Source: an uncultured Eubacteriales bacterium (GTDB lineage: Bacteria > Bacillota > Clostridia > Oscillospirales > Acutalibacteraceae). From it: a DNA stretch of 48,037 nt. A model generated the notes under the pieces. That model saw only the letters and a program-made list of their open reading frames with translations. It did no database searches and was not told where the DNA came from. The stretch covers positions 1 through 48,037 of the forward strand of contig CAYUTE010000008.1 of assembly GCA_964447545.1 (NCBI GenBank), read 5' to 3'. Made by a program: the position numbers and the translations under genes. Positions within the stretch are counted from its first letter, which is position 1. Each line of letters begins with the position of its first letter. Of the stretch, positions 3,460-34,332 are shown piece after piece.

Positions 3460-3478
3460 TAAACCACCTCAAAATAGT

Positions 3479-12446: not shown

Positions 12447-13614
12447 CACTATAATTTTTTTTAATTTTTTTATTGCAAAATTTATTCGATACTACCGGAT
12501 GTTTGAAAACCCTAACACTTGCCGTGAAGAATATACATAATATTAGTAAAAGCAAACTGCTTGTGGGGAAAATGCCGGGTTGCGGTTTGTGCGAAACTTT
12601 AAATGCGGTATAGGTTTGTATGCAAATTTCTTCGTTCTTGAAAATTATTAGAGAAAGCAAAACAGAAATTATTCCGTTTAAAACTCTATAACAAAAAAAC
12701 TTTTTATGACTGAATTTTGTTTTACTAAGCGCCGAAATAACTTGCATATGGCCACAAATACCCCCAAAGCCTATAATCCAAGATATTAGCCAAAGAGGTG
12801 CTTTTAATTCGGCCGATTTTAAGCAGCCTTGAGTTATTTCGAGAAATCCCGCAAAAAATACTTTTAAATAATTGATAATCAATTGATTGGGCAAAAGATT
12901 ATTTATAAGAAATTCGATTGCCCAAAAATTGTTTATAATACTTGTTATAGCGAAAAATGCTACAATTACAGCGCATATGATTATTATAGATTCGCATGCA
13001 TATTGGCAAGAATCTATAAATAACTCGCTAATAGAAAAATTGTAATTTGAATTTGTTTCTTTACCCGAATAAATATTATTTTTATTTATTCTTTCATTAA
13101 CTGCACTTATTAAAGCGATTATTAAAGAAGAAAAAACTTGAATTAAAAATAGCCAAACTCCGATTTTTTGATTTTTTAGTATCGTATTCCCCAGCGTTGT
13201 TATTATAAATCCGGGTCCGGCATTAACGCAAAAACTCATTAATCTATTTACTTGTTTTGAATCGATTTTCTTTTCTTTATAAAGTTCATTTACACAATAT
13301 GCCCCCACCGAGTATCCGCCAATTATGCTCATTAAGATAGTAGGGAATGTGTACCCCGGCATATAAAACAAGAAGTTTATGGGCTTTTCTAAAATTTTTG
13401 ATAATTTATTTGCTATTCCGGATTTTATTATTATCGATGATATTATCATAAACGGGAACATCGAGGGTATGACTATATTTATACAACAGGAAATACCATT
13501 TAATATTCCGTATCTTATACCGGTAGAAAAATTTAAAATACATACGCAAGAAAATGCTAATGTTATTAAAAGAAGTGTGATTTTTATTTTGTTTTTGACT
13601 CCTGATTTTATCAA
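12427..13614 (-). CDS. ylbJ: Polytopic membrane protein, YlbJ-like (sporulation integral membrane protein / nucleoside-recognition-domain family)
   Basis: 395 aa with about 10 hydrophobic segments. The length and pattern recall YlbJ. The family assignment is from recall of sequence character and sporulation-gene context, not a search. Confidence 0.55.
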   Translation of the reverse strand: MIKSGVKNKIKITLLLITLAFSCVCILNFSTGIRYGILNGISCCINIVIPSMFPFMIISSIIIKSGIANKLSKILEKPINFLFYMPGYTFPTILMSIIGGYSVGAYCVNELYKEKKIDSKQVNRLMSFCVNAGPGFIITTLGNTILKNQKIGVWLFLIQVFSSLIIALISAVNERINKNNIYSGKETNSNYNFSISELFIDSCQYACESIIIICAVIVAFFAITSIINNFWAIEFLINNLLPNQLIINYLKVFFAGFLEITQGCLKSAELKAPLWLISWIIGFGGICGHMQVISALSKTKFSHKKFFCYRVLNGIISVLLSLIIFKNEEICIQTYTAFKVSHKPQPGIFPTSSLLLLILCIFFTASVRVFKHPVVSNKFCNKKIKKNYSVDNIKN

Positions 13615-13641
13615 AATACTTTTACCTCCTATAAAATATGG

Positions 13642-13671
13642 GTCATTTTTATTTATATTTACTCATATATA
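13642..13671 (+). promoter_or_regulatory. Candidate mother-cell (sigma-E/K-like) promoter upstream of yqfC-yqfD
   Basis: GTCATTTT (13642-13649), 14 nt, CATATATA (13664-13671). It resembles the TCATATT-N14-CATACAnT class. Pattern match only. Confidence 0.3.
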
Positions 13672-13722
13672 ATTTATGTAACTATATAAGAAACGTTTTG
13701 GTTAAAAATAAGGAGTTTTCGA

Positions 13723-14013
13723 GTGAATTTTAAAAACAAAATTTGTTTTGCTAATGATAAGTTTGATGCCAAAAAAATAAAAAGTTATATTTCCGATAAT
13801 TTTTTAAATTCGTTGCATATGGAGTTCAAAGGGAACAGAGAAATTGTAGTTGAAGGGTGCAGGTCAATAGAGGAATACGATGAAAATATAATAAAAATAA
13901 AAGTTAAAAATATGATTGTTTCTTTTTTTGGCCGTAATTTGGGCATAAAATGCTTGACTTCGGACTCCCTCATAATTTTTGGATTTATAACCTCTGTTGA
14001 GTTCTTAACTTAA
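13723..14013 (+). CDS. yqfC: YqfC/YabP-family sporulation protein
   Basis: 96 aa, GTG start 7 nt after AAGGAG. REIVVEGCRSIEEYDENIIKIKV is typical of the YabP/YqfC fold. It sits immediately upstream of a yqfD-like gene, as in Bacillus. Confidence 0.6.
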   Translation: MNFKNKICFANDKFDAKKIKSYISDNFLNSLHMEFKGNREIVVEGCRSIEEYDENIIKIKVKNMIVSFFGRNLGIKCLTSDSLIIFGFITSVEFLT

Positions 14014-14052
14014 CTTGCTAGTTTTATTAGAGGGTAAAAAGGGGGACGTGGT

Positions 14053-15249
14053 GTGGTTTTATATATAATAAGAAAACTTTTTGGATATATTTCGTTCAAG
14101 GTCAGTGGCGGAAATCCGGATAAATTTTTAAATCTTCTGGCCAAGAACGGATTTAACGTTTGGAATATTAAAAAAGAAAACGGCGACCTTACTGCTAAAA
14201 CTATCGCTACTGAATTTGAATCCGTTTGTAAGTTGGCAGGTAAATCTAATTCTCAAATTGAGATTTTAAAAAAGAGCGGAATTCCGTTTTGGGTGAAAAA
14301 ATATAAAAACAGATTTGGGTTTTTAGTTGGATTTTTTTGTTTTATTATAATTTTATTGATGATGCCGATGTATGTTTGGAAAGTGGAAGTAAAAGGCTGT
14401 AATAATATGAGTGAAGACGAAGTGAAAAAAATTATGTGCGATTTAGGTGTATGGCCGGGAGCATTAAAAAACAGTATAAATTTTCCTCTTGCTCAGCAAA
14501 ATGCTATGTCTAGACTCGGAGCGGTATCGTGGGTTTCTTTAAATCTTAAGGGTAGCACTGTGGAAGTTTTGATTAAAGAAAAAGTAATCCCTCCCGAAAA
14601 AAACGAGCCGGAAGATACCGGCCTTTGTAATATTACGGCGGCAGCTAGTGGAGTAATAGAGAGGACGGAAACATATCGTGGAGCGGCAGTTGTAAAGCCC
14701 GGTGACGTTGTTAGTGATGGTCAGCTTTTGATAAGCGGGATTATAGAAAACCCGTCTGGCGGCAATGAGTTTGTAAGTGCTGATGGCAAGGTTTATGCTA
14801 AGACATTAAGAAAAATTTCTTTAAAAGAAAAAGTAAATCAAATTTGTATTTGTGATACAGGCAAAACTACTCAGCGTTGTCGCATAAAAATTTTCTCATT
14901 TGAAATACCGCTCAGCTTTGCGAAGAAAATGCAAGGAGATCATCGATATGAATTCTCGGAGCGGCACGTAGACTTTTTAGGAGCAAGATTACCAATAACT
15001 GTTTTTAGGGAAAAAGGATATGAGCAACAGCAGATAGAAAAAAATCTGGATATAGAACAAGCGAAATCGGCGTTAGAGAAAAAGTTTGAGGAGTTTGAGA
15101 AAGATAATTTTGGTGACGATTTAAAAATCATTAATAAATCGATGGGGGAAGTCAGAAAATCCGAAAACGGAGAGGAATACGTTCAAGAGTGTCAGTACGA
15201 ATGCTTGGAAAATATTGCAAAAAAACAGCAGATGATATTTGAAAATTAG
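14053..15249 (+). CDS. yqfD: YqfD-like sporulation protein (stage IV-type, single TM)
   Basis: 398 aa. It has an N-terminal cytoplasmic part, one TM (FLVGFFCFIIILLMMPMYVW) and a C-terminal domain. Synteny is yqfC-yqfD-ybeY-dgkA-era-recO. Confidence 0.6.
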   Translation: MVLYIIRKLFGYISFKVSGGNPDKFLNLLAKNGFNVWNIKKENGDLTAKTIATEFESVCKLAGKSNSQIEILKKSGIPFWVKKYKNRFGFLVGFFCFIIILLMMPMYVWKVEVKGCNNMSEDEVKKIMCDLGVWPGALKNSINFPLAQQNAMSRLGAVSWVSLNLKGSTVEVLIKEKVIPPEKNEPEDTGLCNITAAASGVIERTETYRGAAVVKPGDVVSDGQLLISGIIENPSGGNEFVSADGKVYAKTLRKISLKEKVNQICICDTGKTTQRCRIKIFSFEIPLSFAKKMQGDHRYEFSERHVDFLGARLPITVFREKGYEQQQIEKNLDIEQAKSALEKKFEEFEKDNFGDDLKIINKSMGEVRKSENGEEYVQECQYECLENIAKKQQMIFEN

Positions 15250-17764: not shown

Positions 17765-18470
17765 TTTAAGTAGTGATAATAATCTTGTGAATATTTTTAC
17801 ACAGGATATGGGTGTCATTTCAGCTATAGTCCCTTGTAACCGTGGTAGGAACAAAGGGAGGCTTTCTGCACTCTCGGTGTTATCTTATTGCGATTTTTCG
17901 CTTTTTGAGAATCGCTCGGGGTATATTGTTAATGATGCGGAAATTCTTAATGTTTTTTGGAATATAAAGAACGATATAAAATCGTTGACCATATCGCAAT
18001 ATTTATGCGAGTTATGTTTTGCTCTTTCTTGTGAAAACGATTTGTCCCAAGATTTTTTTAGACTTTTTTTAAATTCTCTTTTTTATATTTCAAAAGGTAT
18101 TAAATCTCCGGAATTTGTAAAATTGATTTTTGAAATTAGATCAAGTTCGTTGTGTGGATATATGCCAGACATAGTTTGTTGTGATAAATGCGGGAAATAC
18201 GAAGATGAAAATATGTATTTCGATTTGAAATCCGGCAAGCTCTTTTGTGAAAATTGTGCAAAAGAGTGTGGAGATTTTTGTGTTTCGTTAAGTCTTGGAA
18301 TGGTTAAGGCTTTGCGTCATATTGTTTATTCGCCTATTGAAAAATTGTTTTTATTTAATCTTTCAGAGAAAGCGCTGAAAATCCTGAACGAATTATCTGA
18401 AAAATATATTGTTTACCATGTGCAATCGGATTTCAAAAGTCTGAAATTTTACAACGAGGTATGTTTATAG
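17730..18470 (+). CDS. recO: DNA repair protein RecO
   Basis: MRIKGIVIRK... OB-fold N-terminus and zinc motif CDKCGK...CENC. ATG at 17730 lies 10 nt after GGAGAA. The ORF track begins at a TTG at 17712. Confidence 0.85.
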   Translation: MRIKGIVIRKINLSSDNNLVNIFTQDMGVISAIVPCNRGRNKGRLSALSVLSYCDFSLFENRSGYIVNDAEILNVFWNIKNDIKSLTISQYLCELCFALSCENDLSQDFFRLFLNSLFYISKGIKSPEFVKLIFEIRSSSLCGYMPDIVCCDKCGKYEDENMYFDLKSGKLFCENCAKECGDFCVSLSLGMVKALRHIVYSPIEKLFLFNLSEKALKILNELSEKYIVYHVQSDFKSLKFYNEVCL

Positions 18471-19202
18471 AACCAAATTTATGAGTTTTAATATATTGCA
18501 AGTTAAGAAACACATTATTAAGCCGACGACTGTAGGTAATATAAAAGCTACGATAGTCCACTTTATACTGTTTGTTTCTTTTTTTATTGTTAAACACGTG
18601 GTTCCGCACGGAAAGTGCATAAGCGAAAACATCATTGTGCAAATCGCTGTTATATAAGTCCAGCCATGAGAAACAAGGAGTTCTTTTAATTCAAATAAAG
18701 ATTCTGTTTCCATTATGCTGCCGGTACACATATAGCACATTATTATTATTGGGAATACTATTTCGTTTGCAGGGAACCCCAGTATAAACGCCATTAGTAT
18801 TACGCCATCGAGCCCTATCAATTTGGCAAAAGGGTCTAAAAATTGTGCGCAGTGCATCAGAACGCTTATATCATTTATTTTTATGTTTGCCATAAGCCAT
18901 ATTACTAATCCTGCAGGCGCCGCTACTGCTACCGCTCTGCCTAGCACGAAAATTGTTCTGTCGGCGATTGATCTTATCAGTATTTTGCCTATTTGAGGCT
19001 TTCTATATGGTGGGAGTTCCAATATAAATGATGAGGGTTCGCCTTTAAGCAATGTTACTGATAGTAGTTTTGATGTTAAAAATGTAACCACAAGCCCTAA
19101 AAGTATGAACATTGTGAGTATAGCCGCAGATATAAAAGAGCTGGCTCCTAAAAAATTTGAACCTAAAAAGAACATTGAAATTATTGAAATAAGCAGAGGG
19201 AA
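18465..19202 (-). CDS. feoB: feoB 3' segment (C-terminal membrane part of ferrous iron transporter B); split gene with no start signals of its own
   Basis: The frame is open from 19202 (FPLLISIISMFFLGS...). It contains LELPPYRKP and GFPANEIVFPIIIM, typical of the FeoB C-terminal Gate/nucleoside-recognition region. It continues exactly where the 28950..30386 fragment stops being FeoB-like. No SD precedes the internal Met at 19175. Confidence 0.85.
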   Translation of the reverse strand, partial: FPLLISIISMFFLGSNFLGASSFISAAILTMFILLGLVVTFLTSKLLSVTLLKGEPSSFILELPPYRKPQIGKILIRSIADRTIFVLGRAVAVAAPAGLVIWLMANIKINDISVLMHCAQFLDPFAKLIGLDGVILMAFILGFPANEIVFPIIIMCYMCTGSIMETESLFELKELLVSHGWTYITAICTMMFSLMHFPCGTTCLTIKKETNSIKWTIVAFILPTVVGLIMCFLTCNILKLINLVL

Positions 19203-19220
19203 TACACAGTTTAAACATGG
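19186..19220. other. Left junction (attL-like) of the feoB-intervening segment
   Basis: Plus strand: GCAGAGGG (feoB side), AAT core (19201-19203), then element arm TACACAGTTTAAACAT (19203-19218). Octamer CAGTTTAA is at 19207-19214, 4 nt from the AA core. Confidence 0.6.
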
Positions 19221-19226
19221 AAAGTT

Positions 19227-20567
19227 TTATTTAAAATATATTTTTAATGCTTCTCCATCCCATACGATTTCTTTTATAGTGCTATTTATAAATTCTTGCT
19301 TAATGTTTATTGGAGTTTTATCAAAAAAATCTTCGTGTTTTAAATACGGCATTATTTTTTCTAATTTTTTGCTTTTAGACTGAGATAAAAGTTTTTTAAC
19401 GCAACCGGTGAATACTTCTTTATCGACCTTTACACCGTTAAGATTTTTACATTGGCAAAAATTTAAACCTTTGTATATTTTATTGCTACAAATATAGTCG
19501 AAGCAAAATTTGCTTTTTGTATTTCTGATCTTAGTTAACATTTTGCCACCACATTTTTTGCATTTTATATATCCGGAAAGTATAGAATATTTTTCGGATT
19601 TTTTATTATGGGATTTATTTTTAGATATGTTAGATATGATTTTTTGAGTTTTAATCCAATTGCGCCCCGATATTATTCCGGTGTGTGTTCCAACTGATAT
19701 AATCCATTTTGAGTAATCGTTCGTACTTGCACAGTTTTTTTGATAGTGATATTTATTGTAAGAAAAAACCCCGAATTTATCGCTCCAATTGTTTTCGGTA
19801 AAACATATATCGGCATTTACTTTCTTAAAAAAATTAAAAGCATCTTTGTCTGCGATGCAATAAATAGGGTTGCGCAGTATTTTTTTTATTCCGGTGATTG
19901 AAAAATTCTTTAAGTTTGAATTTGGCTTTTCTAGATATCTTTTTACTTCCGAAAATGATTGTGTTTTAAGAAATATAGAATAAATTATTTTTATGTTGTC
20001 TATTTTTGATTCATCGGTTCTTAGATTAAATTTGTGTTTGACTTTGCCATACGAGTCTTTGGTAGTGATTTTAACCGATTTTAATCCATAAGGTGTTGTA
20101 CCGCCTAGCCACTGGGCGTTTTTAGCAAGCATCATCATGTTGTCTTTTACACGTTCTGCTATTGTTTCTCGTTCTAACTGAGAAAATACTGAAGCTATGT
20201 ACATCATTGCTCTGCCAATTGGGACCGATGTATCAAATTGTTCCTTTATACAAACGAATGATATATTATAAGAAATTAATTTTTCTATTAAATTTGAAAA
20301 ATCATTTATATTGCGACTTATCCTATCAAGTTTATAGCAGATAATATATGAAAACATATTGTTTTTTAAATCAGACATCATTTTTTGAAATCCCGGTCGT
20401 TCTGTGTTTTTCCCAGAAAACCCTTCGTCTTTGTAAATTAATATATCTGATTTTTTCAAGTTTGGTATATGATTAAGAGCGTATTCTTGGCACATATTTA
20501 TCTGGTTTTCTGCCGATTCTCCTTTATCGGTAAATTTGGATTTTCTGCTGTATATTGCAACTTTCAT
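19227..20567 (-). CDS. Large serine recombinase (resolvase catalytic domain + recombinase domain + zinc ribbon)
   Basis: N-terminal IYSRKSKFTDKGESAENQ (catalytic Ser context), YKLDRISRN, GRAMMYIASVFSQLERETIAERV. Zinc ribbon YIKCKKCGGKM...FCQC. 446 aa. Confidence 0.9.
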   Translation of the reverse strand: MKVAIYSRKSKFTDKGESAENQINMCQEYALNHIPNLKKSDILIYKDEGFSGKNTERPGFQKMMSDLKNNMFSYIICYKLDRISRNINDFSNLIEKLISYNISFVCIKEQFDTSVPIGRAMMYIASVFSQLERETIAERVKDNMMMLAKNAQWLGGTTPYGLKSVKITTKDSYGKVKHKFNLRTDESKIDNIKIIYSIFLKTQSFSEVKRYLEKPNSNLKNFSITGIKKILRNPIYCIADKDAFNFFKKVNADICFTENNWSDKFGVFSYNKYHYQKNCASTNDYSKWIISVGTHTGIISGRNWIKTQKIISNISKNKSHNKKSEKYSILSGYIKCKKCGGKMLTKIRNTKSKFCFDYICSNKIYKGLNFCQCKNLNGVKVDKEVFTGCVKKLLSQSKSKKLEKIMPYLKHEDFFDKTPINIKQEFINSTIKEIVWDGEALKIYFK

Positions 20568-20730: not shown

Positions 20731-22398
20731 TTAGAACAGTCCTGAAATTTCTCCGTTTTTATTTATGTCAATGTTTTCGGCAGCAGGGTGTAGTGGAAGC
20801 CCCGGCATTCTTAATATGTTGCCCATAATAACAACTATGTATCCGGCACCATTTGAAAGATAAATGTTTTTTACTGTTACGGTAAAGTCTGATGGTGCTC
20901 CTAATTTTTGTGGGTCGTCAGATAGAGAATATTGAGTTTTTGCTACGCAAATAGGCAAGTTGGTTTTTCCTATATTTTCGATTTTTAATATATCTTTTTC
21001 TGCTTGCGGGGTATAGTATACATCTTTTGCGTGATAAATCTCTTTTGCAACTTTCTCTATTTTTTCTTTAATAGGAATATTAAGAGGGTAGATGGGGGAA
21101 AAGTTTTCCGGCTCATCACAAGCTTTTATTACGTCTTTAGCAAGTTCTTTGCCGCCTTCGCCACCTTTAGCAAACACTTCTGATACTGAAATTTTGCAGT
21201 TTAATTTTTTACAAAGCTCTTTTACTATATTTATTTCATCAGTAGTGTCTGTTTGAAATTTATTTATGGTTACAACAACAGGTACTCCGTATTTTTTCAT
21301 ATTTAAAATGTGCGATTTAAGATTACAAATACCTAATTTAAGAGCTTCTATATTTTCATTCTTTAAATTTTCTAATTTTTCTTTACCGTTGTATTTAAGT
21401 GCTCTTATTGTTGCAACTATAACGATACATGAAGGTTTTAAATCTGCTAATCTGCATTTAATATCTAAAAACTTTTCTGCACCTAGGTCGGCGCCGAACC
21501 CGGCTTCTGTGATGCAGTAATCTCCAAGTTTTAACGCAAGCTTTGTTGCCCTTACTGAATTGCATCCGTGTGCGATGTTTGCAAACGGTCCGCCGTGCAT
21601 TATTACCGGCGACTCTTCGATTGTTTGAACAAGATTTGGCTTTATTGCCTCTTTAAGTAGTGTGGCCATAGCACCTTGTATATTTAAATCTTTTGCATAT
21701 AGAGGATTCCCGCTATAATCATAAGCAATTAAAATTTCCCCAAGTTTTAATTTTAAATCTTCTAAATTTTCTGCCATACAGAGTATTGCCATTATTTCTG
21801 TTGCAACAGTTATTACAAAGCCATCTTCACGTGGGAATCCGTTAATTTCTCCACCAAGTCCTACTACAATATTTCTAAGCGCACGGTCGTTTATATCTAG
21901 ACAGCGTTTTACCAAAATTCTTCGTGGATCTATTTTAATTTTATTTCCTTGATGAATATGGTTGTCTATTACAGCGCACAGAAGATTGTTTGCAGCTGTG
22001 ATTGCATGCATATCTCCGGTAAAATGCAGGTTTATATCTTCCATAGGTAGCACTTGCGAATATCCGCCACCTGTTGCGCCTCCTTTAATTCCAAAAACCG
22101 GTCCTAAAGATGGTTCTCTTAGTGCGATTACGGTTTTTTTACCAAGCGAGTTCAGAGCTTGACCTAATCCTATTGTAATTGTAGTTTTGCCTTCTCCGGC
22201 AGGAGTAGGGTTAACCGCTGTTACCAGTACTAGTTTGCCGTCTTTTTTATTTTTAGATTTTTCAAAAACTTGTTCCGATATTTTAGCCTTATATTTACCG
22301 TAGTTTTCTATATCCTCTGCATAAAGTCCTAGTTTCTCTGCTATTTTAATTATAGGTTTAATATCTGCTTTTTGAGCGATTTCAATATCTGAGAGCAT
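20731..22398 (-). CDS. fhs: Formate--tetrahydrofolate ligase
   Basis: 555 aa. [11 protein letters not shown]..., nucleotide loop [14 protein letters not shown], full-length FTHFS pattern. Confidence 0.95.
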
Positions 22399-22418
22399 AT
22401 CTTATTACCTCCTGAAGA

Positions 22419-23624
22419 TTATTTTAAGAGTTTTTGAATTACCTTGTATATGTTTTTTAAGCAATCTGATTTATCGAATTTTTGACAGTTGAGTTTCATG
22501 GCATTTAGTCTTTTAGGGTCGGTTAATAAATTTTCTATAATCTTTATATCATACTTTCCACCGGTTAATCTAACTGCCATATTGTTTTTTACTAAAAAGT
22601 TGGCGTTTTCTTCTTCTTGGCCCGGTATTGCGTTAAAAAGTGCCATAGGCAAGTTGCAAGCTAATGCTTCGCTTACAGTCAGTCCTCCGGGTTTAGTGAT
22701 TATTAAATCAGATGATTGCATATATTTGCTTACTTCATTTGTAAAGTATATTACTTTGGTCTTTTTACGATTATCTTTATTATCAAAACTCAATTTTTTT
22801 GGTTTTTTTATTAATCTTAATTTTTTTAAATTTAAATGTTTTAGGATGAATTTTCTTTTTTTGATTTCTTCTCCAGAAGCTAGCATACGTATGTTATTAT
22901 ATAATTTTTGGTTTTTGCCGGTTATTATTATTATTTGTACATCTGTTTTTAATGATTGTAATTTTTCATAAATTTCTGCTATGTTTGCAATACCGCCGCA
23001 TCCTGCCATCATCAAAATTGTGGGGACGCCCTGAGAAAACCCTATGCTTTTTAAGACTTCTTCTTTGTTTTTAGGAGAGTGAAAGTCTTCGTTGATGGGT
23101 ATTCCAAACGGATAAATTATTTTTGGATCCACGCCGATTTCTTCCATAGGTTTTATCATTTGATCATTTGCAACTATATAGGCATCGGTTTTATCGTTAA
23201 TCCATGTCCTGTGCGGTGCGTAGTCTGTCATTACGCATACAAGTGGCACAGTTATCTTTCCGGCTGATTTTAAGCTTGAAATCATTTCCGCCGCAAATGG
23301 GTGAGTTACGATTATAATATCCGGATTAAAATCATTAATACTGGGCAATAGCTTTTTACTTATAGTGCCGTTAACAGTAGCAACCAATTTACTTACAGCC
23401 GCTTGGTTATTTGATGTATCATACATTAATTTCCAAAGATGTTTATGGCTTTTGGCTATGTGACCATATATTTCAATAACCGTTTTATTTAATATACGAC
23501 TGATGGTTTCTATGGTGTCTAGCATTTTTACTTCGGCACCATTGTTTTTTAGATATTCGTTTATTGCTTTTGCGGCACTTATATGCCCGCCGCCTGTTTT
23601 AGCTGATAATATAATAACTTTCAC
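22419..23624 (-). CDS. GT28/MGDG-synthase-family glycolipid glycosyltransferase (UgtP-like)
   Basis: N-terminal SAKTGGGH, C-terminal DLIITKPGGLTVSEALA...PGQEEENA. It has a Lys-rich insertion of roughly 35 aa between the two Rossmann halves. GTG start 6 nt after AGAGG. Confidence 0.75.
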   Translation of the reverse strand: MKVIILSAKTGGGHISAAKAINEYLKNNGAEVKMLDTIETISRILNKTVIEIYGHIAKSHKHLWKLMYDTSNNQAAVSKLVATVNGTISKKLLPSINDFNPDIIIVTHPFAAEMISSLKSAGKITVPLVCVMTDYAPHRTWINDKTDAYIVANDQMIKPMEEIGVDPKIIYPFGIPINEDFHSPKNKEEVLKSIGFSQGVPTILMMAGCGGIANIAEIYEKLQSLKTDVQIIIITGKNQKLYNNIRMLASGEEIKKRKFILKHLNLKKLRLIKKPKKLSFDNKDNRKKTKVIYFTNEVSKYMQSSDLIITKPGGLTVSEALACNLPMALFNAIPGQEEENANFLVKNNMAVRLTGGKYDIKIIENLLTDPKRLNAMKLNCQKFDKSDCLKNIYKVIQKLLK

Positions 23625-23625
23625 T

Positions 23626-24573
23626 TTATACCTCTGGAATATTATTATTTTCGCCGAGTATAGTTTTTCCTGTTAGCTTGTTTCCTCTTGTAAAGTCTGC
23701 TGCAGACATACGTTTTTTACCCGCTATTTGAACTTCTTCAAGCTCTAAACTTGTATTATTCCCACAGCCGATAATTAGGGGATTGACGCTTATAATTTGA
23801 CCGGGATTACAAATTCTTTTATCGCTTATTTTAGCTTTATAAATTTTGAAAAGTGTTTTGTTTAATGCTGTATACGCTATAGGCCACGGGTTTAGCCCCC
23901 TTATTAAATTGTTGATTTCAGTAGCAGATTTAATCCAATCTATTTTTCCGAGCGATTTATCTAATGGTGGAGAAAATGTCGCTTCTGACTCATTTTGTTT
24001 TATGCGCTTTATAGTGCCTTGTTCAATCTCCGATATGGTTTTAATAAGAAGGTCTGCGCCTATTTGTGAAAGACGCAATTTTAATTCTTCAGACGTTTCA
24101 TTTTCATATATGGGAGTTTTTTCTTGTAGAAGGATATCGCCTGTATCTAAGCCCTCGTTCATAAACATGGTAGTAATTCCGGTTACGCTGTCGCCATTTA
24201 TTATGCTCCATTGTATAGGCGCTGCTCCTCTATACTTTGGCAAAAGCGAGCCATGGACGTTAATGCAACCGTATTTAGGGAAATCTAATATATTTTTTTT
24301 CAATATTTTTCCGTATGCAACAACTACTATTAATTCTGGATTTAATTTTTTTACTATATCAAAAACTTCCGGGTCTTTCAAATTTTCAGGTTGATAAACT
24401 GCAATACTGTTTTCCTCTGCATAAATTTTTACAGGTGGAGGAGTTATTATCATTTTCCGTCCTTGTGGCTTGTCCGGTTTTGTGAATACTGCGCATATCT
24501 CGTGATTATTTTTTATTAGTGCTTTTAAAGATGGAACTGCGAATTCAGGAGTCCCCATAAAAAGTATTTTCAA
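23626..24573 (-). CDS. fmt: Methionyl-tRNA formyltransferase
   Basis: MKILFMGTPEFAVPSL, HGSLLPKYRGAAPIQWSIING, C-terminal OB-like domain. Confidence 0.95.
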   Translation of the reverse strand: MKILFMGTPEFAVPSLKALIKNNHEICAVFTKPDKPQGRKMIITPPPVKIYAEENSIAVYQPENLKDPEVFDIVKKLNPELIVVVAYGKILKKNILDFPKYGCINVHGSLLPKYRGAAPIQWSIINGDSVTGITTMFMNEGLDTGDILLQEKTPIYENETSEELKLRLSQIGADLLIKTISEIEQGTIKRIKQNESEATFSPPLDKSLGKIDWIKSATEINNLIRGLNPWPIAYTALNKTLFKIYKAKISDKRICNPGQIISVNPLIIGCGNNTSLELEEVQIAGKKRMSAADFTRGNKLTGKTILGENNNIPEV

Positions 24574-24754
24574 ATTTATTTCACCTCAGAGCGTTCAAGC
24601 TGTTTCTTTTGCTTTTTAAAATATATAAATTATGATATTACATTTTAGAAGTATTTTCAATAATCCTGTATGTATAGCCGGTTCTCTATTTATAATAAGC
24701 TCAATATGTGATATAATTATTTTTAGAGTTTTAAAAAAACCGAGGGGGATTAGT

Positions 24755-25822
24755 GTGTTTAAACGTCTTGAAAATATACAAAAAAGATATAATGAAGTTA
24801 ACGAAGCGTTGTGTGATACAAAGATTTTATCTGACCAGCAAGAATATAAAAAATTTATGAAAGAGTATAAAAATCTAACTCCTATAATAGAAAAATACGC
24901 AGAATATAAAAAAGAAGAAGCTAGCGCTCTAGAGGCAAAAGAGTTACTATCGGACAATGATTGTGACAAAGAATTTAAAGATATGGCACAAGCTCAGCTT
25001 GACTCTTCAAAAGAAAATATTCAAAAAATTTCTGAAGAACTTAAAATCTTGCTTTTGCCCAAAGACCCCAATGATGAAAAAAATGTAATTATGGAGATAC
25101 GTGGCGGAGCAGGCGGAGAAGAAGCAGCTTTGTTTTCTAGTGTTCTGTTCAGAATGTATAATATGTATTCTCAGGCTAAACACTGGAAAGTAGAAATTCT
25201 CAATGCAAACGAAACACAGCTTGGTGGATATAAAGAGATAAGTTTTATGGTTTCCGGAGAAGGAGCATATTCAAAGTTAAAATTTGAAAGCGGTGTTCAC
25301 AGAGTTCAAAGAGTGCCTGATACAGAAACTCAAGGGCGTGTTCATACGTCAACGGTTACAGTAGCAGTTTTGCCGGAGGCAGATGATGTTGAAATTGAGA
25401 TAAATCCAAGTGATTTACAAATAGATACATATAGATCCGGCGGAGCAGGTGGCCAACACGTAAATAAAACTGAATCGGCAATAAGAATAACTCATATTCC
25501 TACAGGTCTTGTAGTAGAATGCCAAGATGAGCGCAGCCAGTATAAAAACAAAGATAAAGCTATGAAGGTTCTAAAATCAAGATTACTTGACTTAAAACGT
25601 TCTGAACAAGAATCTGCTGTTGCTCAGGAACGTCGTTCACAAGTTGGAACGGGTGACCGTTCGGAGCGTATAAGAACATATAATTATCCGCAGAGCAGAG
25701 TTACAGACCATAGAATAGGTTTAACACTTTATAGACTTGAAGATGTTCTAAATGGCGATTTAGATGAAATTATTGACAGTTTAATAACAGCGGATCGTGC
25801 AGCAAAACTTGCAGGAAATTAA
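24755..25822 (+). CDS. prfA: Peptide chain release factor 1
   Basis: GTG start 6 nt after GAGGGGGA gives a 355-aa protein starting [15 protein letters not shown]. It has the GGQ motif [12 protein letters not shown] and [14 protein letters not shown]. The ORF-track start at 24632 adds a non-homologous extension. Confidence 0.95.
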
Positions 25823-25851
25823 ATTTATCTATTTGGTGAAAGGAAATAAAT

Positions 25852-26862
25852 TTGAAAACTAAGATTTTAAATTCAAATCAAACGGATATTGCGGCAGATA
25901 TTTTAAAATCCGGTGGATTAGTTGCAATACCGACTGAAACAGTTTATGGTTTGGCCGCAAGCGCATACAAACCGCAGTCTATAAAAAATATTTTTATTGC
26001 CAAAGGTCGCCCTATGGATAACCCTTTAATAGTCCATATCGCTGATATAAAAAATATTTATGAAGTGGTTTCAGAGTTCCATGAAACAGCTCAAAAATTG
26101 GCAGAAAAATTTTGGCCCGGCCCTCTTACTATGATATTACCTAAAAATTCTAAAATCCCAAACGAAGTCTGCGCAGGGCTTAGCTCTGTGGCTGTTAGAT
26201 TCCCATCAAATAAAATAGCTCAAGAAATAATTTTGAAAACGGGAGAACCTCTTGTTGCTCCGTCGGCCAATCTTTCGGGTAAGCCGAGCCCGACCAAGTT
26301 CGAACACGTTTTTGAAGATTTAAATAGTAAAATTGATGCGATTGTAGACGGTGGAGATTGTACTGTGGGGCTTGAGTCAACCGTTGTTTCGCTTTTGGAA
26401 GAAATTCCAAGAATACTAAGACCCGGGGCTATAAGCGCTGACGATATAAAAAACACTGTTGGATGCGTTAAAATTGACGATGCAGTGTTTAAAAAATCAA
26501 AAGCCGGAGAAAAAGTTCTTTCACCCGGAATGAAATATAAGCATTATTCTCCAAAAACTCCGGTAACTATGATTATTAGTAGCGCAGAGAAATATTCCGA
26601 ATTTATAAATTCAAAGAAAAACGATAATATAATAGCACTTTGCTTTAATGAAGACATTCAAAACATAAATGTGCCATATGTATCATATGGAGGGTCTGAT
26701 GACGTTAAAACGCAGGCTCAAAAATTATTTGGTGCGTTAAGAGATGCCGATAAACTTCAAGGAACTCATATTTATGCCCATTATAAGGATGTTAATGGAT
26801 TTAGTGTTGCAGTTTATAATCGGCTGGTAAGGGCTGCGGGATTTGATATTATAAATCTATAA
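25852..26862 (+). CDS. tsaC: L-threonylcarbamoyladenylate synthase (TsaC/YwlC/Sua5 long form)
   Basis: YrdC domain IPTETVYGLAA...SANLSGKPS, plus a Sua5 C-terminal domain. TTG start after GAAAGGAA. Confidence 0.9.
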   Translation: MKTKILNSNQTDIAADILKSGGLVAIPTETVYGLAASAYKPQSIKNIFIAKGRPMDNPLIVHIADIKNIYEVVSEFHETAQKLAEKFWPGPLTMILPKNSKIPNEVCAGLSSVAVRFPSNKIAQEIILKTGEPLVAPSANLSGKPSPTKFEHVFEDLNSKIDAIVDGGDCTVGLESTVVSLLEEIPRILRPGAISADDIKNTVGCVKIDDAVFKKSKAGEKVLSPGMKYKHYSPKTPVTMIISSAEKYSEFINSKKNDNIIALCFNEDIQNINVPYVSYGGSDDVKTQAQKLFGALRDADKLQGTHIYAHYKDVNGFSVAVYNRLVRAAGFDIINL

Positions 26863-26872
26863 GAAAAGGGGT

Positions 26873-27454
26873 GTGTGCAGCATAGATATAAAATCAAAGA
26901 AACGAATAATTAGCTTAGTTTTTGTTTTATCTCTAGTACTTTTTGGATTGATTGTTATATATAAAGGTTCCAAGTCCATATTTAAATATTTTTATCCTAT
27001 AAACTACGAGGATATAGTAACTGAAGCTTCAAATAAGTATGGCGTTGAAAAAGAGTTAATATATGCTATAATTAAGTGTGAAAGCGGATTTGATAAATCA
27101 GCACATTCGCATGCAGATGCGGTGGGGTTGATGCAAATAACCCCAGGAACTTTTAAATGGCTTAGGGATAAATCGAAAGATGATTTAAGCAGCTATTCTG
27201 ATATTTCTGATCCGCGTACAAATATCATGTGCGGAACATATTTGATTTCGTTTTTAAGAAATAGGTATAAAAATTTAGATGTTGCGCTTTGTGCGTACAA
27301 TGCAGGTATTACCACGACTGATAAATGGATTAGAACAAATAAAATATCTAAGGATAATATGGATTATTCTGAAATTCCATATAATGAAACCAAAAATTAT
27401 GTAAAGCGTGTTAAACGTGCCAGAGAGATTTATAAAAAATTATATTTTAGTTGA
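26873..27454 (+). CDS. Membrane-anchored lytic transglycosylase (SLT domain)
   Basis: N-terminal TM, catalytic CESGFD, GLMQI, AYNAG. The start codon is uncertain because the SD is very close to the GTG at 26873. Confidence 0.75.
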   Translation: MCSIDIKSKKRIISLVFVLSLVLFGLIVIYKGSKSIFKYFYPINYEDIVTEASNKYGVEKELIYAIIKCESGFDKSAHSHADAVGLMQITPGTFKWLRDKSKDDLSSYSDISDPRTNIMCGTYLISFLRNRYKNLDVALCAYNAGITTTDKWIRTNKISKDNMDYSEIPYNETKNYVKRVKRAREIYKKLYFS

Positions 27455-27477
27455 TTTTAAAGAAAGGAACTGGATTT

Positions 27478-28881
27478 ATGAACACAAACAAAAATTCAAG
27501 CTCAGAACTTAAAGAAAAACTGTTTTTAAATAAGAAAAACGGTGCAAACCGCATAGGTGAATCAGAACTTAAAAAGAGTTTTGATTTTGCAGAAGGATAT
27601 AAAGATTTTTTGAACACTTGCAAAACAGAAAAAGAATGTGTGCGTTATGCAATTAATGAAGCTAAAAAATTAGGATTTGAAGAATTTGACAGCTCTAAAA
27701 AATATAAAGCAGGAGATAAAGTATATAAAATAAATAGAGATAGAAATATAGTTCTGGCTATTATCGGAAAAGACGGCACCAAAAACGGAATAAATTTAGC
27801 TGTTGCTCATGCCGATGCTCCACGCCTAGACCTTAAGCCAAATCCATTATTAGAAAACAATGAGCTTGCAATACTTAAAACTCATTATTATGGAGGAATT
27901 AAAAAGTATCAGTGGACAGTTCTTCCGCTTTCTTTACACGGCCGTATAGTAAAACGTGATGGAAGCTATGTTGATGTTTGTATTGGTGAAAATGATGATG
28001 AACCGTGCTTTTGCGTGACTGATTTGTTACCACATCTTGCTCGTGAGCAAATGTCTAAAAAGATGTCTGAAGGAATACTTGGAGAAAATTTAAATCTATT
28101 AGTTGGTAGTATTCCATTCGCTGATGCTGAGGGTTCTGAATTAGTTAAGCTCAATATTTTAAAAATATTGAATGATAAATATGGCATAGTTGAAGAAGAT
28201 CTTATATCTTCTGACCTTGAGCTTGTTCCCGCTTATAAAGCTAAAGATTTAGGGTTTGACAGGAGCTTAATTGGGGGATACGCTCACGATGATAGATCTT
28301 GTTGCTACCCATGTTTAAGAGCTATACTAGAGTCTAAAGATCCGAAAAAAACTACTGTGGTCATGTTAACGGATAAGGAAGAAATCGGAAGCGACGGAAA
28401 TACAGGTTCTCAATCTAAGTTTTTAGAGTATTTTATAGCTGACCTAGCAGATCAAGATGGAGTAAATTTACGTGATGTATTGACAAAAACCAAATGTCTT
28501 TCAGCAGATGTAAATGCAGCATACGACCCTACGTACCCTTCAAGTTTTGAACCCGCCAACAGTTCTTATATAAATAGGGGAGTAGTTGTTACAAAATATA
28601 CCGGAAGTGGCGGAAAATACGGGACATCTGATGCTACGGCCGAATTTACCGGTGAGGTCTGCAAGATTTTTAATGATAATGATGTTTTGTGGCAAAGCGG
28701 CGAGCTTGGAAAAGTAGATAATGGTGGCGGCGGAACCATTGCAAAATACATTGCCAATTTGAATGCAGATGTTATAGATGTTGGTGTTCCTGTATTGTCT
28801 ATGCACGCACCGTTTGAGGTGATTTCTAAAATAGATTTATATATGACGTTTAAAGCAATATTCTCATTTTTTAAAGCATAG
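27478..28881 (+). CDS. M18-family aminopeptidase
   Basis: VAHADAPRLDLKP, GYAHDDRSCCY, DKEEIGS, MHAP motifs of M18 aminopeptidases. ATG at 27478 lies 8 nt after AAAGGAA. Confidence 0.8.
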   Translation: MNTNKNSSSELKEKLFLNKKNGANRIGESELKKSFDFAEGYKDFLNTCKTEKECVRYAINEAKKLGFEEFDSSKKYKAGDKVYKINRDRNIVLAIIGKDGTKNGINLAVAHADAPRLDLKPNPLLENNELAILKTHYYGGIKKYQWTVLPLSLHGRIVKRDGSYVDVCIGENDDEPCFCVTDLLPHLAREQMSKKMSEGILGENLNLLVGSIPFADAEGSELVKLNILKILNDKYGIVEEDLISSDLELVPAYKAKDLGFDRSLIGGYAHDDRSCCYPCLRAILESKDPKKTTVVMLTDKEEIGSDGNTGSQSKFLEYFIADLADQDGVNLRDVLTKTKCLSADVNAAYDPTYPSSFEPANSSYINRGVVVTKYTGSGGKYGTSDATAEFTGEVCKIFNDNDVLWQSGELGKVDNGGGGTIAKYIANLNADVIDVGVPVLSMHAPFEVISKIDLYMTFKAIFSFFKA

Positions 28882-28927: not shown

Positions 28928-28959
28928 AAAAGCTCTTAAAATAGGGCTTTTATTTTTTT
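28928..28959 (+). terminator. Rho-independent terminator after the aminopeptidase gene, just inside the right end of the element
   Basis: Stem AAAGCTC/GGGCTTT (28929-28935 / 28944-28950, one G-U) followed by TATTTTTTT. Confidence 0.65.
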
Positions 28960-30386
28960 GCAATATTAAACTGCGCTAATCTGCCGTTGCAAGGAACAAA
29001 ATTATTTGTTAAAAGTGCAATTAATCTTTCTCTTGGCGAATCTATTATTCTGCATCCAATAACGCCACAGGCGTTACAACCAAACCCCATACAAGTGGTT
29101 AGCGCTTGCTTTCCGTGAGCTCCGCATTTATTGAATGAATTATCTAAACTAAAGGCTATTCTTGGCAAATATCCTACGTCTTCCAAGAATGTAAATAGCG
29201 GGAAAAATATGGCCATAGGCGGTAGCATTACTGAAACCACCCAAGCAAGTGTTCTGTACATACCTTCAACAAAAAGGCCGTTAATCCACTGCGGGCAAGA
29301 GTGCGATATTAGAATAGCTGTTAATTTTTCCTGAATATTAAATAGCACCGATGCTATAATTTCAGATGGGTAGTTTGCACCTGATATTGTTATCCAAAAT
29401 ATCCCCATAAGTAGGAGTATCATTATAGGTATTCCTGTTGTTTTGGAGGTTAAAACGTGGTCAATTTTTCTATCTTTTTTGTCATATGATTTGTTTTCAA
29501 TATGTACGCATAATCGGCTTATTTGTTCAGATTTGTTTATTAAAGACTTTACTATGATTTTTTTAATTGATTCTTGAGTTATGTTTTTTTTATTTAAAAT
29601 ATCTTTTTCTGATTCTATTATTTCTTTTACTGACGGATTGGTGTAAATTTCATTAAACTCATTTTTTATTTTTCCCTCTAGTTTTTTATCGTTTTCTAGA
29701 ATTTTAAGTGCGTGCCAGCGTGAGTTTGTGTTTTTTGATATAAAAGGGGAAATCGCAGCAGAAACATTTTCTAAGCAAGAATTTAAAGGGTCTGGATAGT
29801 TTATTGTTGTTCCAAATGTTTTGCGTTTTTTTAGAGCTACATCGTTTACAGCTTGCATAAGTTTTTTTATTCCTTGTTTTTTTCGGGCGTTTGTGTATAC
29901 AACGGGTACTCCAAGTTGTAATGAAAGTTCGTCTAAATCTATATAAATCTTTTTTTTCTTAGCTTCATCGATTAAGTTTACGCATATTACAACGTTTTTT
30001 GTCATTTCTAATATTTGTAAGGCTAAGTTTAGATTTCTTTCTAGACATGTTGCATCCATTACTACTATTATTGCATCTAGGTTTGAAAAACAAATGAAAT
30101 CTCTTGCTATTTCTTCTTCCGGCGAATTAGACATCAATGAGTATGTGCCGGGAATGTCTGTAATTTTAAAAGTATTGCCGTTGTAACAGTATTTTCCTTG
30201 AGCACACTCCACAGTTTTTCCGGGCCAGTTTCCTGTGTGCTGTTTCATGCCGGTAAGAACATTAAATACTGTACTTTTACCAACGTTGGGGTTGCCTGCA
30301 ATGGCAATGTTTTTAAAATTAATATTTTTGATTGTTTTTTTATTAAAATATTTAATTTTAGAAATAGAACTTTTTATAATGTTCAT
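28950..30386 (-). CDS. feoB: feoB 5' segment (G-domain, helical domain and first membrane segments). FeoB homology ends at 28980; the last 9 codons and the stop are element-encoded.
   Basis: G1 GNPNVGKST, G3 DIPGTYSL, NLID, membrane part up to ...RERLIALLTNNFVPCNGR. Then comes a non-FeoB tail LAQFNIAKK and the stop. Confidence 0.9.
   Translation of the reverse strand: MNIIKSSISKIKYFNKKTIKNINFKNIAIAGNPNVGKSTVFNVLTGMKQHTGNWPGKTVECAQGKYCYNGNTFKITDIPGTYSLMSNSPEEEIARDFICFSNLDAIIVVMDATCLERNLNLALQILEMTKNVVICVNLIDEAKKKKIYIDLDELSLQLGVPVVYTNARKKQGIKKLMQAVNDVALKKRKTFGTTINYPDPLNSCLENVSAAISPFISKNTNSRWHALKILENDKKLEGKIKNEFNEIYTNPSVKEIIESEKDILNKKNITQESIKKIIVKSLINKSEQISRLCVHIENKSYDKKDRKIDHVLTSKTTGIPIMILLLMGIFWITISGANYPSEIIASVLFNIQEKLTAILISHSCPQWINGLFVEGMYRTLAWVVSVMLPPMAIFFPLFTFLEDVGYLPRIAFSLDNSFNKCGAHGKQALTTCMGFGCNACGVIGCRIIDSPRERLIALLTNNFVPCNGRLAQFNIAKK
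28962..28995. other. Right junction (attR-like) of the feoB-intervening segment
   Basis: Plus strand: element arm AATATTAAACTGCGCT (28962-28977), AAT core (28978-28980), then the feoB side TCTGCCGTTGCAAGG. TTAAACTG at 28966-28973 is the inverted copy of the left-arm octamer at the same 4-nt distance from the core. Confidence 0.6.
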
Positions 30387-30440: not shown

Positions 30441-30683
30441 TTAAATCTCATAAACTATTATGTCTTTGATGTCATCGTTCCTGAGTGCGATCACTGCTCC
30501 GCGTATTAAGTAAGCAGTTAAATTTTTTGAAGGGTCATTATGTAGAGCTTTAATTTTTGTGCCTTCCACTAAGCCCAAATCCATAAATCTACGCAACAAA
30601 AAATCATCTTTTGCACTAACTTTAATTATTTTATACTCGTGATTGAGTTTGCAATTGTTTAGACGTACAAATATAGTCTTCAA
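30441..30683 (-). CDS. feoA: FeoA-family protein
   Basis: 80 aa, SH3-like FeoA pattern (RRFMDLGLVEGTKIKAL...GAVIALRNDD), directly upstream of feoB. TTG start. Confidence 0.8.
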   Translation of the reverse strand: MKTIFVRLNNCKLNHEYKIIKVSAKDDFLLRRFMDLGLVEGTKIKALHNDPSKNLTAYLIRGAVIALRNDDIKDIIVYEI

Positions 30684-30703
30684 TTTGTTTCAGTCCTTCG
30701 CAA

Positions 30704-30724
30704 CATAATTTTTAACAAATTATG
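30704..30724. promoter_or_regulatory. Perfect 8-5-8 palindrome in the feoAB upstream region (candidate operator)
   Basis: CATAATTT-TTAAC-AAATTATG, 21-41 nt upstream of the feoA start. The half-sites are AT-rich ATAAT-type. Confidence 0.4.
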
Positions 30725-30745
30725 CATTTGCTCAATTTTTTGATA

Positions 30746-30787
30746 CTAAAAAAACAAAACACACACCATAAGTTTGGTATGTGTTTT
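30746..30787 (-). terminator. Rho-independent terminator of the repeat-protein gene, upstream of feoA
   Basis: Minus strand: AAAACACATACC-loop-GGTGTGTGTTTT followed by GTTTTTTT. Confidence 0.75.
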
Positions 30788-30836
30788 GCTGGCTAATTAT
30801 TATATTTAATAATATATTTGCTTATTATTTGTCTGT

Positions 30837-31490: not shown

Positions 31491-31532
31491 TCTTAACATT
31501 TCCTTTCAAACAAAAATTTGTAAAACAAATTA

Positions 31533-34237: not shown

Positions 34238-34332
34238 ATTCTTTAATTATAAAATGTATTTTACAAAGTTTATTATATATTAGTAAACAAAAAAACTCAA
34301 TACCTAATTTTTTGTTATGGAGGGTTTTTGAT

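Follow-up and report, generated by a model that had tools for sequence, protein, structure and literature searches.

In the 48,037-nt contig analysed here (the window; position 1 is its first letter), the gene feoB is split in two by a segment that opens with a gene for a large serine recombinase (LSR). We consider it probable, from comparison with related loci, that the two junctions are the attL and attR sites of a resident element bounded by this recombinase, and that excision of the element would rebuild feoB. On the plus strand, the left junction reads GCAGAGGG-AAT-ACACAGTTTAAACAT, with AAT at 19201-19203, and the right junction reads AATATTAAACTGCGCT-AAT-CTGCCGTTGC, with AAT at 28978-28980. 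An earlier reading of this DNA, made without comparison to other genomes (the sequence-only reading), had written both junctions in this form and had called them attL and attR; both strings are accurate, and AAT is the sole identity common to the two junctions. The attL site (19176..19227) comprises a host B' arm (19176-19200), the AA core (19201-19202) and the P' arm of the insert (19203-19227), while attR (28953..29004) comprises the P arm of the insert (28953-28977), the AA core (28978-28979) and a host B arm (28980-29004); AA on the plus strand is TT on the recombinase strand. Read outward from AA, the P half-site is AGCGCAGTTTAATATTGCAAAA and the P' half-site is TACACAGTTTAAACATGGAAAG, and the host half-sites are CCCTCTGCTTATTTCAATAATT on the side of the C-terminal part of feoB (feoB-C; the B' arm of attL) and TCTGCCGTTGCAAGGAACAAAA on the side of the N-terminal part (feoB-N; the B arm of attR).

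The two arms on the insert side are inverted copies of each other. The octamers CAGTTTAA (19207-19214, within the P' arm) and TTAAACTG (28966-28973, within the P arm) each lie 4 nt from AA, and the arms match at 10 of 16 positions, as direct inspection confirmed, or at 14 of 21 once the comparison is extended. This symmetry goes beyond chance, since a match of at least 14/21 has a P value of about 4e-4 among random pairs of positions drawn from the window; the 19-nt P-arm sequence itself occurs only once in the window (0.02 occurrences expected). The sequence-only reading had allowed either AA or AT as the dinucleotide of the staggered cut, and of these only AA holds up: the dyad score along the rebuilt attP is 14 when the centre is AA (offset 0) and between 1 and 9 at each of 22 further offsets, whereas the score is just 4/21 if AT is taken as the core. 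With the dyad both non-random and centred on AA, we place the crossover there; the crossover dinucleotide is AA, not AT. AA is identical and non-palindromic in both sites and the two sites are direct repeats, so the predicted outcome of recombination between them is deletion rather than inversion, in line with the polarity that had been proposed.

The feoB gene is interrupted in a manner that can be precisely undone. The feoB-C part (18465..19202, minus strand) carries Pfam FeoB_C and the second Gate domain; its open reading frame (ORF) proper spans 18465-19175, but the sequence is in frame from the Phe codon at 19200-19202, the first two bases of which are the core. The feoB-N part (28980..30386, minus strand) carries FeoB_N, FeoB_Cyto and the first Gate domain (G domain and helical domain), and its ORF as it stands continues into the P arm to a stop at 28950 (ORF 28950-30386). 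Removal of 9,777 bp in silico, with one AAT kept, yields an uninterrupted, in-frame FeoB of 714 aa, the joint of which reads ...NNFVPCNGR-FPLLISIISMFF... and which aligns to intact FeoBs of 719-720 aa with 70% identity across 99% of its length. The split point is the Arg-Phe codon pair of the conserved CNGRFP motif (CNGR|FP). The in-frame rebuilding of feoB, the adjoining LSR gene, the dyad on AA, and the homologous ends and empty site described below all support the attL/attR assignment.

The same junction recurs in other genomes, with a related LSR at the same feoB codon in at least 20 other lineages and same-position junctions in 32 metagenome loci and 4 further genomes. The metagenome scan, for which the query was the C-terminal part of these recombinases, returned 80 loci. 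In 32 of the 80 (16 junction clusters at 95% identity), feoB-C comes immediately after the recombinase gene, with the joint at the same Phe codon, and in 3 further metagenome loci the recombinase lies beside feoB-N. Not every relative targets feoB: 37 of the 48 loci without the junction between LSR gene and feoB-C have at least 1.2 kb of downstream sequence, and the recombinases P0030 (L041) and P0006 (541 aa, L047) are not within feoB. One relative, L042, has the order feoB-N, M18, SLT, Sua5, PrfA, VanY, Fmt, MGDG synthase, Fhs, recombinase (P0067, 53% identical to that of the window) and feoB-C; L046 has Fhs, recombinase, feoB-C, RecO and Era, and L043/L044 and L045 have the recombinase and then feoB-C, with other cargo. 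On the recombinase strand, the passage from feoB-N into the insert reads GCAACGGCAGA-TT-AGCGCAGTTTAATATTGCAAAAAAAT in the window and GCAACGGCCGT-TT-ACCGCAGTTTAAAATAGCAAAAAAAT in L042, and that from the insert into feoB-C reads AAACTGTGTA-TT-CCCTCTGC and AAACTGCGCT-TT-CCCACTAT, respectively. The codon and the core are identical and the arms are related. Homologous elements that end elsewhere, which the sequence-only reading had named as the outcome that would count against it, were not what we found; the ends coincide at the same feoB codon, with a TT/AA core and related arms.

The P arms of the window and L042 are identical at 23 of 26 positions (88%), but the windows of sequence that follow match at only 10/26, 9/26 and 7/18 positions (35-39% over 70 nt), which is background for the neighbouring DNA. 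The size of this footprint is that of a serine-integrase half-site, ∼26 bp (PMC3783163). Three arm families are seen, each dyad-symmetric about TT, and the arms of L090 and L094-L100, in which both ends are visible, again show this symmetry; the P arm of L094-L100, for instance, is CCCGCCACCGGAGAAAGGGCAAAT and the P' arm TGGGCCACCGGGGGAAGGGCAAAC. The dyad has the same centre in L042 and in arm family C as in the window. Moreover, the third shared base varies between lineages (A in the window, T in L042), while TT is constant.

An empty site is also found. In L049, an intact feoB of 719 aa stands in the order feoA, feoB, recO, era, dagK, ybeY, yqfD, yabP, a synteny shared with the left flank of the window and with L043 and L046, and its target sequence is TGCAACGGAAGA-TT-TCCACTACTAATTGCAAT. 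This and other natural empty sites, such as those of L050 and L001 (GGAAGATTTCCACTAC and similar), bear on the small inverted repeat GCAGA-TTCCC-TCTGC that the sequence-only reading had noted in the reconstructed host site: the repeat is present in the window, but it is off-centre from the core and absent from the natural empty sites, and is best taken for chance or a side effect of coding sequence rather than for a functional feature. A nearly identical pair of intact and split FeoBs within one species would point to polymorphism or excision, but none was present among 120 FeoB matches, the best of which was 77% identical.

Several further features of the sites were noted in the course of these comparisons. 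In all three lineages in which both ends are seen, the base 5' of the TT core on the recombinase strand agrees between attL and attR (A/A in the window, T/T in L042, A/A in L094-L100), such that the shared identity is always 3 nt, against the 2-nt core to which the dyad centre points; this base and the core lie within 19200-19203 and 28978-28981 in the window, at L042:816-819 and 11395-11398, and at L095:3572-3575 and 10862-10865. In L046, the 11-mer TTAATTGCAAT is found at positions 12-22 of P' and at 8-18 of B', a shift of 4 bp judged by eye, and the other B arm fits poorly; in serine integrase sites the zinc-ribbon motif is ∼5 bp nearer the core in attB than in attP (PMC3783163). The position of the recombinase gene is not fixed in the family, as in a few metagenome loci (L051, L053 and L054) the gene stands next to feoB-N or in reverse orientation to the core. 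In L053, the P arm TGCGCCACCAGCCAAAGGGCAAC adjoins a reversed feoB-N fragment, and there is a second, distant recombinase-like ORF as well. Finally, some contigs, including L042 (1-11506, contig start) and L044, break within ∼120 bp of the recombinase gene or inside feoB-C; such breaks fit branching of the assembly graph at the junction, which could arise from a mixture of excised and integrated forms, or equally coincidence.

The recombinase gene (19227..20567, minus strand; 446 aa) opens the insert, its stop codon lying 24 nt from the left core. The protein has the domains of an LSR, with Pfam matches to PF00239 (Resolvase, E-value 2.5e-34), PF07508 (Recombinase, 1e-10) and PF13408 (Zn_ribbon_recom, 9e-07) and a match to the TP901-1 catalytic domain (7e-19), and Foldseek searches with its AlphaFold2 model matched Bxb1 (9iu2, 1.6e-15), PhiC31 (9rah) and LI (4kis). 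Residues Y6, R8, S10, D81, R82, S84 and R85 are invariant across 36 homologues, the window protein included, as are the zinc-ribbon residues C336, C339, C360 and C371 across the same set. The exact sequence is not on record, and its cluster has one member; the nearest other recombinase among 5.8 billion proteins is 53% identical, and the best match in a plasmid database is 43.5% identical and annotated only as ‘recombinase family protein’.

The window protein differs from typical LSRs in what remains of its coiled coil. The distance from the NLNG motif to the terminal Trp is 57 aa in the window, compared to 75-78 in the closest feoB relatives and 144-148 in the 541-aa relatives. The AlphaFold2 model has no helical hairpin, with short turns only at 395-419, while the recombinase of L042 (P0067) keeps a single 17-aa helix. 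Judged from segment length and model, the coiled-coil motif is mostly lost, with about 25 residues left, and the long hairpin that in LSRs sits within the zinc-ribbon domain and governs synapsis and direction is absent. LI integrase without its coiled coil does not carry out integration between separate molecules, but performs intramolecular excision whichever pair of sites it is given, attL x attR among them, ‘as an unregulated resolvase’ (PMC3783163), and TndX of Tn5397 alone suffices for excision and integration, according to a reference cited in PMC4430133. By analogy with these two enzymes, we infer that the window recombinase may be a helper-independent, one-way excisionase that cuts at AA. 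Helper-free deletion would be consistent with the absence of a candidate directionality factor among the seven genes that the element carries.

We propose the following course of events. The LSR encoded at 19227-20567 would bind the four half-sites and cut at AA/TT in both sites; the 9,777 bp between them would be deleted, leaving an intact feoB of 714 codons with the predicted attB ...TGCAACGGCAGA-TT-CCCTCTGCTTATT..., and the released 9.8-kb circle would carry the rebuilt attP ...TTTAAACTGTGTA-TT-AGCGCAGTTTAAT.... As to its origin, the element would be one of a large family of LSR elements that target feoB in gut Clostridia, some of them of Tn916 type, and it is now without transfer genes and has an interior of core genes.

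Evidence that the system is used comes from selection on its parts. Both halves of feoB are open and conserved in every well-covered lineage; feoB-C of the window is 66-69% identical to the C-terminal parts in L043 and L046, and feoB-N is 65% identical to the N-terminal part in L042. For feoB-C of L043 and L046, both of which are split, the rates of nonsynonymous (dN) and synonymous (dS) substitution are 0.11 and 1.19, a dN/dS of 0.09, which is on par with the dN/dS of 0.08 obtained when split and intact genes are compared. Similarly, dN/dS of the recombinase is 0.10-0.14. This purifying selection on the split feoB and on the recombinase, together with conservation of the non-coding P arm, makes the system look functional. 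Since selection on a split gene requires that the gene be rebuilt, the simplest reading is that the system is still in use and that feoB is rebuilt often enough to stay under selection.

The cargo of the element constrains when excision could occur. Unusually, it consists of core genes, seven in all (20731..28881), assigned by Pfam: on the minus strand, fhs (20731-22398), a gene for an MGDG-synthase-like glycosyltransferase (22419-23624) and fmt (23626-24573), and on the plus strand, prfA (24632-25822), sua5/tsaC (25852-26862), an SLT transglycosylase gene (26873-27454) and an M18 aminopeptidase gene (27451-28881). In Pfam searches, the insert has no recognisable phage genes, conjugation module or DDE transposase, and the predicted circle has no replication functions. 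With normally essential genes as cargo and no replication genes, excision would have to take place in a terminal cell or be a transient, reversible event.

Excision timed to the sporulating mother cell, as with skin in sigK, is our leading guess, to which we give slightly less than an even chance. Sporulation proteins are encoded in the window (YqfD, stage IV) and in syntenic relatives (YabP and YqfD), while L003, which is a genome bin of the Ruminococcaceae, has Spo0A and SpoIVB. Classically, intervening elements of spore formers sit in mother-cell genes (PMC4191935, PMC5595907), and in C. difficile the expression of feoA-feoB (CD1518-17), which has a sigma-K promoter, falls to 0.05 of wild type in a sigK mutant (PMC3789822). 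Evidence from promoters is weak. A conserved motif, CATAAnnTGTTAAAAA, is found ∼40 nt upstream of feoA in the window (30684-30752, minus strand), in L001:9640-9720 and in L050:9610-9688, and the motif CATATAAT, which is ambiguous, is found upstream of the recombinase gene in L042 and L046. As a separate observation, L001 and L050 have CAC 17 nt upstream of CATAAnnTGTTAAAAA, an arrangement that resembles a sigma-K promoter. In a scan for sigma-70 promoters and terminators, sites were no commoner than in shuffled sequence, and no canonical promoter was found for feoA or the recombinase gene.

A number of points weigh against an element that is excised in this way. The case for excision rests on comparison of sequences. 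The circle would carry prfA, fmt and tsaC, and heritable excision should be lethal if these are single copies, an assumption made from the data of one 48-kb contig. No directionality factor is visible within the element in the window, and no free attP junction (pattern AAACYGYGYWTTASCGCAGTTTA) was found in IMG/VR. The P' arm of the window is more diverged than in its relatives, with TGGAAA in place of their TTGCAA, which could mean weaker binding. With respect to timing, strict sigma-E and sigma-K patterns are absent upstream of both the recombinase gene and feoA in the window, and the promoter-like motifs of the relatives also contain TATAAT. Finally, L049, with its intact feoB, is nested among the split lineages and stands nearer than the window to the L043 group, and either one precise loss or relocation of the element or a second gain would account for it.

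Some of these points would be explained if the sites were a dead scar, that is, a former attL and attR of a system no longer used, with feoB permanently inactive and the recombinase decaying. The near loss of the coiled coil, the lack of a directionality factor, the diverged P' arm and the lethality of heritable excision all fit such a scar, as do three low-coverage relatives (L102, L104 and L108) with broken recombinase or feoB-C genes. We regard it as quite unlikely, given that both halves of feoB remain open and conserved, with dN/dS of 0.09 at dS above 1, that the recombinase is under purifying selection and has kept all catalytic and zinc residues, and that 26 bp of non-coding arm are 88% conserved next to DNA at background. 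A reversible switch in growing cells, like active lysogeny at comK of Listeria, is another reading: the segment would leave, feoB would be on, and the segment would re-integrate, loss of the circle being fatal. Relatives of the recombinase serve as integrases in mobile elements of Tn916 type, which integrate as well as excise, and essential cargo would serve as a device against loss. Such a switch is nonetheless unlikely, as intermolecular integration by LI requires the coiled coil (PMC3783163), most of which the window enzyme is without, and the circle has no replication functions.

Excision would not be needed at all if the two halves of FeoB were made separately and assembled into a transporter, the sites being a historical junction. 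The split does fall between the two Gate-domain repeats, and both halves are conserved, but in four lineages (the window, L042, L043 and L046) the 25 nt ahead of the first Met of feoB-C hold no Shine-Dalgarno sequence, and this Met is a native internal residue of intact FeoBs. On these two grounds the halves are probably not translated separately; separate assembly, which also leaves the conserved non-coding P arm and the recombinase unexplained, is very unlikely. The suggestion that these are not recombinase sites, but a likeness due to chance, a chimera made in assembly or the inverted repeats of a DDE transposon that duplicated 3 bp of its target (AAT), draws on the 3-nt identity at both ends, which could mimic such a duplication. 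The same junctions are present in dozens of independent assemblies, however, the element has no DDE transposase, the inverted repeats begin 3-4 nt inside the ends rather than at them, and the third base varies by lineage while TT does not. Comparison across genomes has effectively refuted this suggestion.

To place the element among its relatives, its age and inheritance can be judged from protein identities. Among L042, L043 and L046, identities are 62-65% for the recombinase, 69% for RecO, 78% for Era and 91% for Fhs; between these loci and the window, they are 53-54%, 50-51%, 63-65% and 70-73%, respectively. Thus, recombinase identity tracks that of host proteins. The cargo block is shared as well: the same genes in the same order are found in L042, inside feoB and beside a recombinase, and the seven-gene block is found in L003 in the same order and orientation, but outside feoB and with no recombinase. 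Cargo proteins from the window, L042 and L003 differ from one another to about the same extent (Fhs 70, 70 and 69%; PrfA 81, 81 and 88%), and we rejected recent horizontal transfer of the cargo on this account. We take the window copy to be an old, vertically inherited derivative without transfer genes, and conclude from the shared block and equidistant cargo that the core genes were within the feoB element before the lineages of the window and L042 separated.

Other members of the family carry quite different genes. In a sample of cargo from 13 loci, several had the Tn916-type conjugation genes ArdA, DUF961, AAA_10, Rep_trans, FtsK and TcpE, confirmed individually in L057, while others had plain host-like cargo, such as ldh and a malic enzyme gene in the 4.8-kb element of L090 and, in the 7.3-kb element of L095, a Na/H exchanger gene together with those of a TetR regulator and a peptidase like BlaR1. 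The clade of recombinases that prefers feoB as its target is thus diversified, with real conjugative elements and reduced, non-mobile derivatives among its members.

The cargo block itself shows several differences between loci. A VanY-type carboxypeptidase gene lies between fmt and prfA in L003 and L042 and is missing from the window, and the prfA ORF of the window (396 aa) is ∼40 codons longer at its start than those of relatives (355-359 aa; window region 24574-24750). L042 has, between the P arm and the M18 gene, a 55-aa acidic ORF (L042:845-1012, minus strand; LKPIEVKILGMEKNEYFKREVADFF...) that might encode a directionality factor; such an ORF would not fit in the window, where only 96 nt separate the M18 stop from the core. 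Around the recombinase-free block of L003, no att remnants were recognised, just IS-like repeats and a duplicated M18 fragment. The flanks of that block (2990-3994 and 13036-14800) are ∼1-1.7 kb of non-coding DNA on each side with inverted IS-like repeats, and L003:13450-13530 is a duplicated 3' fragment of the M18 gene; these features may be scars of block movement. In the distant relatives L006:5170-12955 and L007:2108-9880, prfA, sua5 and M18 adjoin divergently transcribed sbcD-sbcC homologues. The sbcDC genes of the window (34312-38074) lie 5.3 kb past attR, which hints that the core-gene block was once near here before it entered feoB.

Both flanks of the element are ordinary chromosome. 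On the feoB-N side are dnaX, ybaB, recR, a gene for a 220-aa protein and feoA (30441..30683, minus strand; Pfam FeoA), the first gene of the interrupted feoAB operon, and on the feoB-C side are recO, era, dagK, ybeY and yqfD. The scan called a strong terminator upstream of feoA (30753-30790). The 220-aa protein (30837-31499, minus strand), encoded between recR and feoA, has no Pfam match, and has C-terminal EEQPxEEQP repeats and a Ser/Glu-rich tail.

The proposed biology most resembles that of skin/SpoIVCA, SPbeta/SprA and especially gin/GirC, and in descent its relatives are integrases of Tn916-family elements, like TndX. In skin/SpoIVCA within sigK (Bacillus subtilis, Clostridioides difficile) and SPbeta/SprA-SprB within spsM, an LSR element likewise interrupts a coding gene of an endospore former, and precise deletion restores the reading frame, with vertical inheritance through the germ line (PMC4191935, PMC5025042, PMC5499854), as we propose for the feoB element. 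Unlike these targets, feoB is not known as a sporulation gene in this group. The element also differs in that it carries core, normally essential genes and not the remains of a prophage, its recombinase is without most of the coiled coil, and no directionality factor can be seen; sporulation-specific excision is a proposal made here. The gin element (GirC/GirX) in gerE of Bacillus cereus shares with the feoB element a non-prophage nature, serine recombinase sites at its ends, an attP that is an inverted repeat, and AA as the predicted dinucleotide of cleavage (PMC5595907). It differs in being nearly identical between strains, a sign of recent transfer, and in needing the helper GirX; the feoB element has diverged along with its hosts, its recombinases being down to ∼50% identity, and its cargo is housekeeping genes.

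The likeness to Tn5397/TndX is one of gene context, in that relatives of the window recombinase end Tn916-type modules (AAA_10, TcpE, ArdA, Rep_trans, FtsK, DUF961). TndX has a GA core and targets Fic-domain genes, while the window element has an AA core, targets feoB and has no conjugation genes. The A118/LI integrase of Listeria, which integrates in comK, also a coding gene, is of similar size, with the same three-domain fold and a pseudo-palindromic attP with ∼25-bp half-sites; sequence identity is low, and LI has a 75-aa coiled coil that enforces direction, such that the window enzyme resembles the engineered coiled-coil deletion of LI. In the fdxN element of Anabaena heterocysts, the serine recombinase XisF removes an intervening element in a terminally differentiated cell, but the phylum, cell type and target are different. 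XisF requires XisH and XisI. The feoB element is distinct from these known systems in its target, its deep co-divergence with its hosts, its cargo of core genes and a coiled coil that is nearly gone, and full-text searches of a library of papers returned nothing that links feoB with serine recombinases, serine integrases or intervening elements. While the attachment-site claim itself is ordinary once confirmed, the surrounding context is not.

The family offers several matched sets of recombinase and sites (three arm families) for one conserved 50-bp target in gut Firmicutes. The window recombinase would be a natural counterpart of the engineered coiled-coil deletion, which makes the idea that an integrase becomes a dedicated excisionase when its coiled coil is lost directly testable. 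A mobile family, in part of Tn916 type, can apparently settle in a host gene, lose its transfer genes and fill with core genes. More tentatively, and with clearly less than an even chance of being right, many gut Clostridia may hold a conserved and programmed rearrangement of feoB, in which the gene is split in the germ line and rebuilt by a domesticated, one-way excisionase without a coiled coil, probably in the mother cell, and here with prfA, fmt and tsaC, all essential for translation, among the genes discarded. If this is true, feoB would join the genes rebuilt by programmed excision (sigK, spsM, gerE, spoVFB, spoVR, nifD, fdxN and hupL), as the first transporter gene among them, and this would be a case of somatic genome processing fatal to any but a terminal cell, which would lock the element permanently in place.

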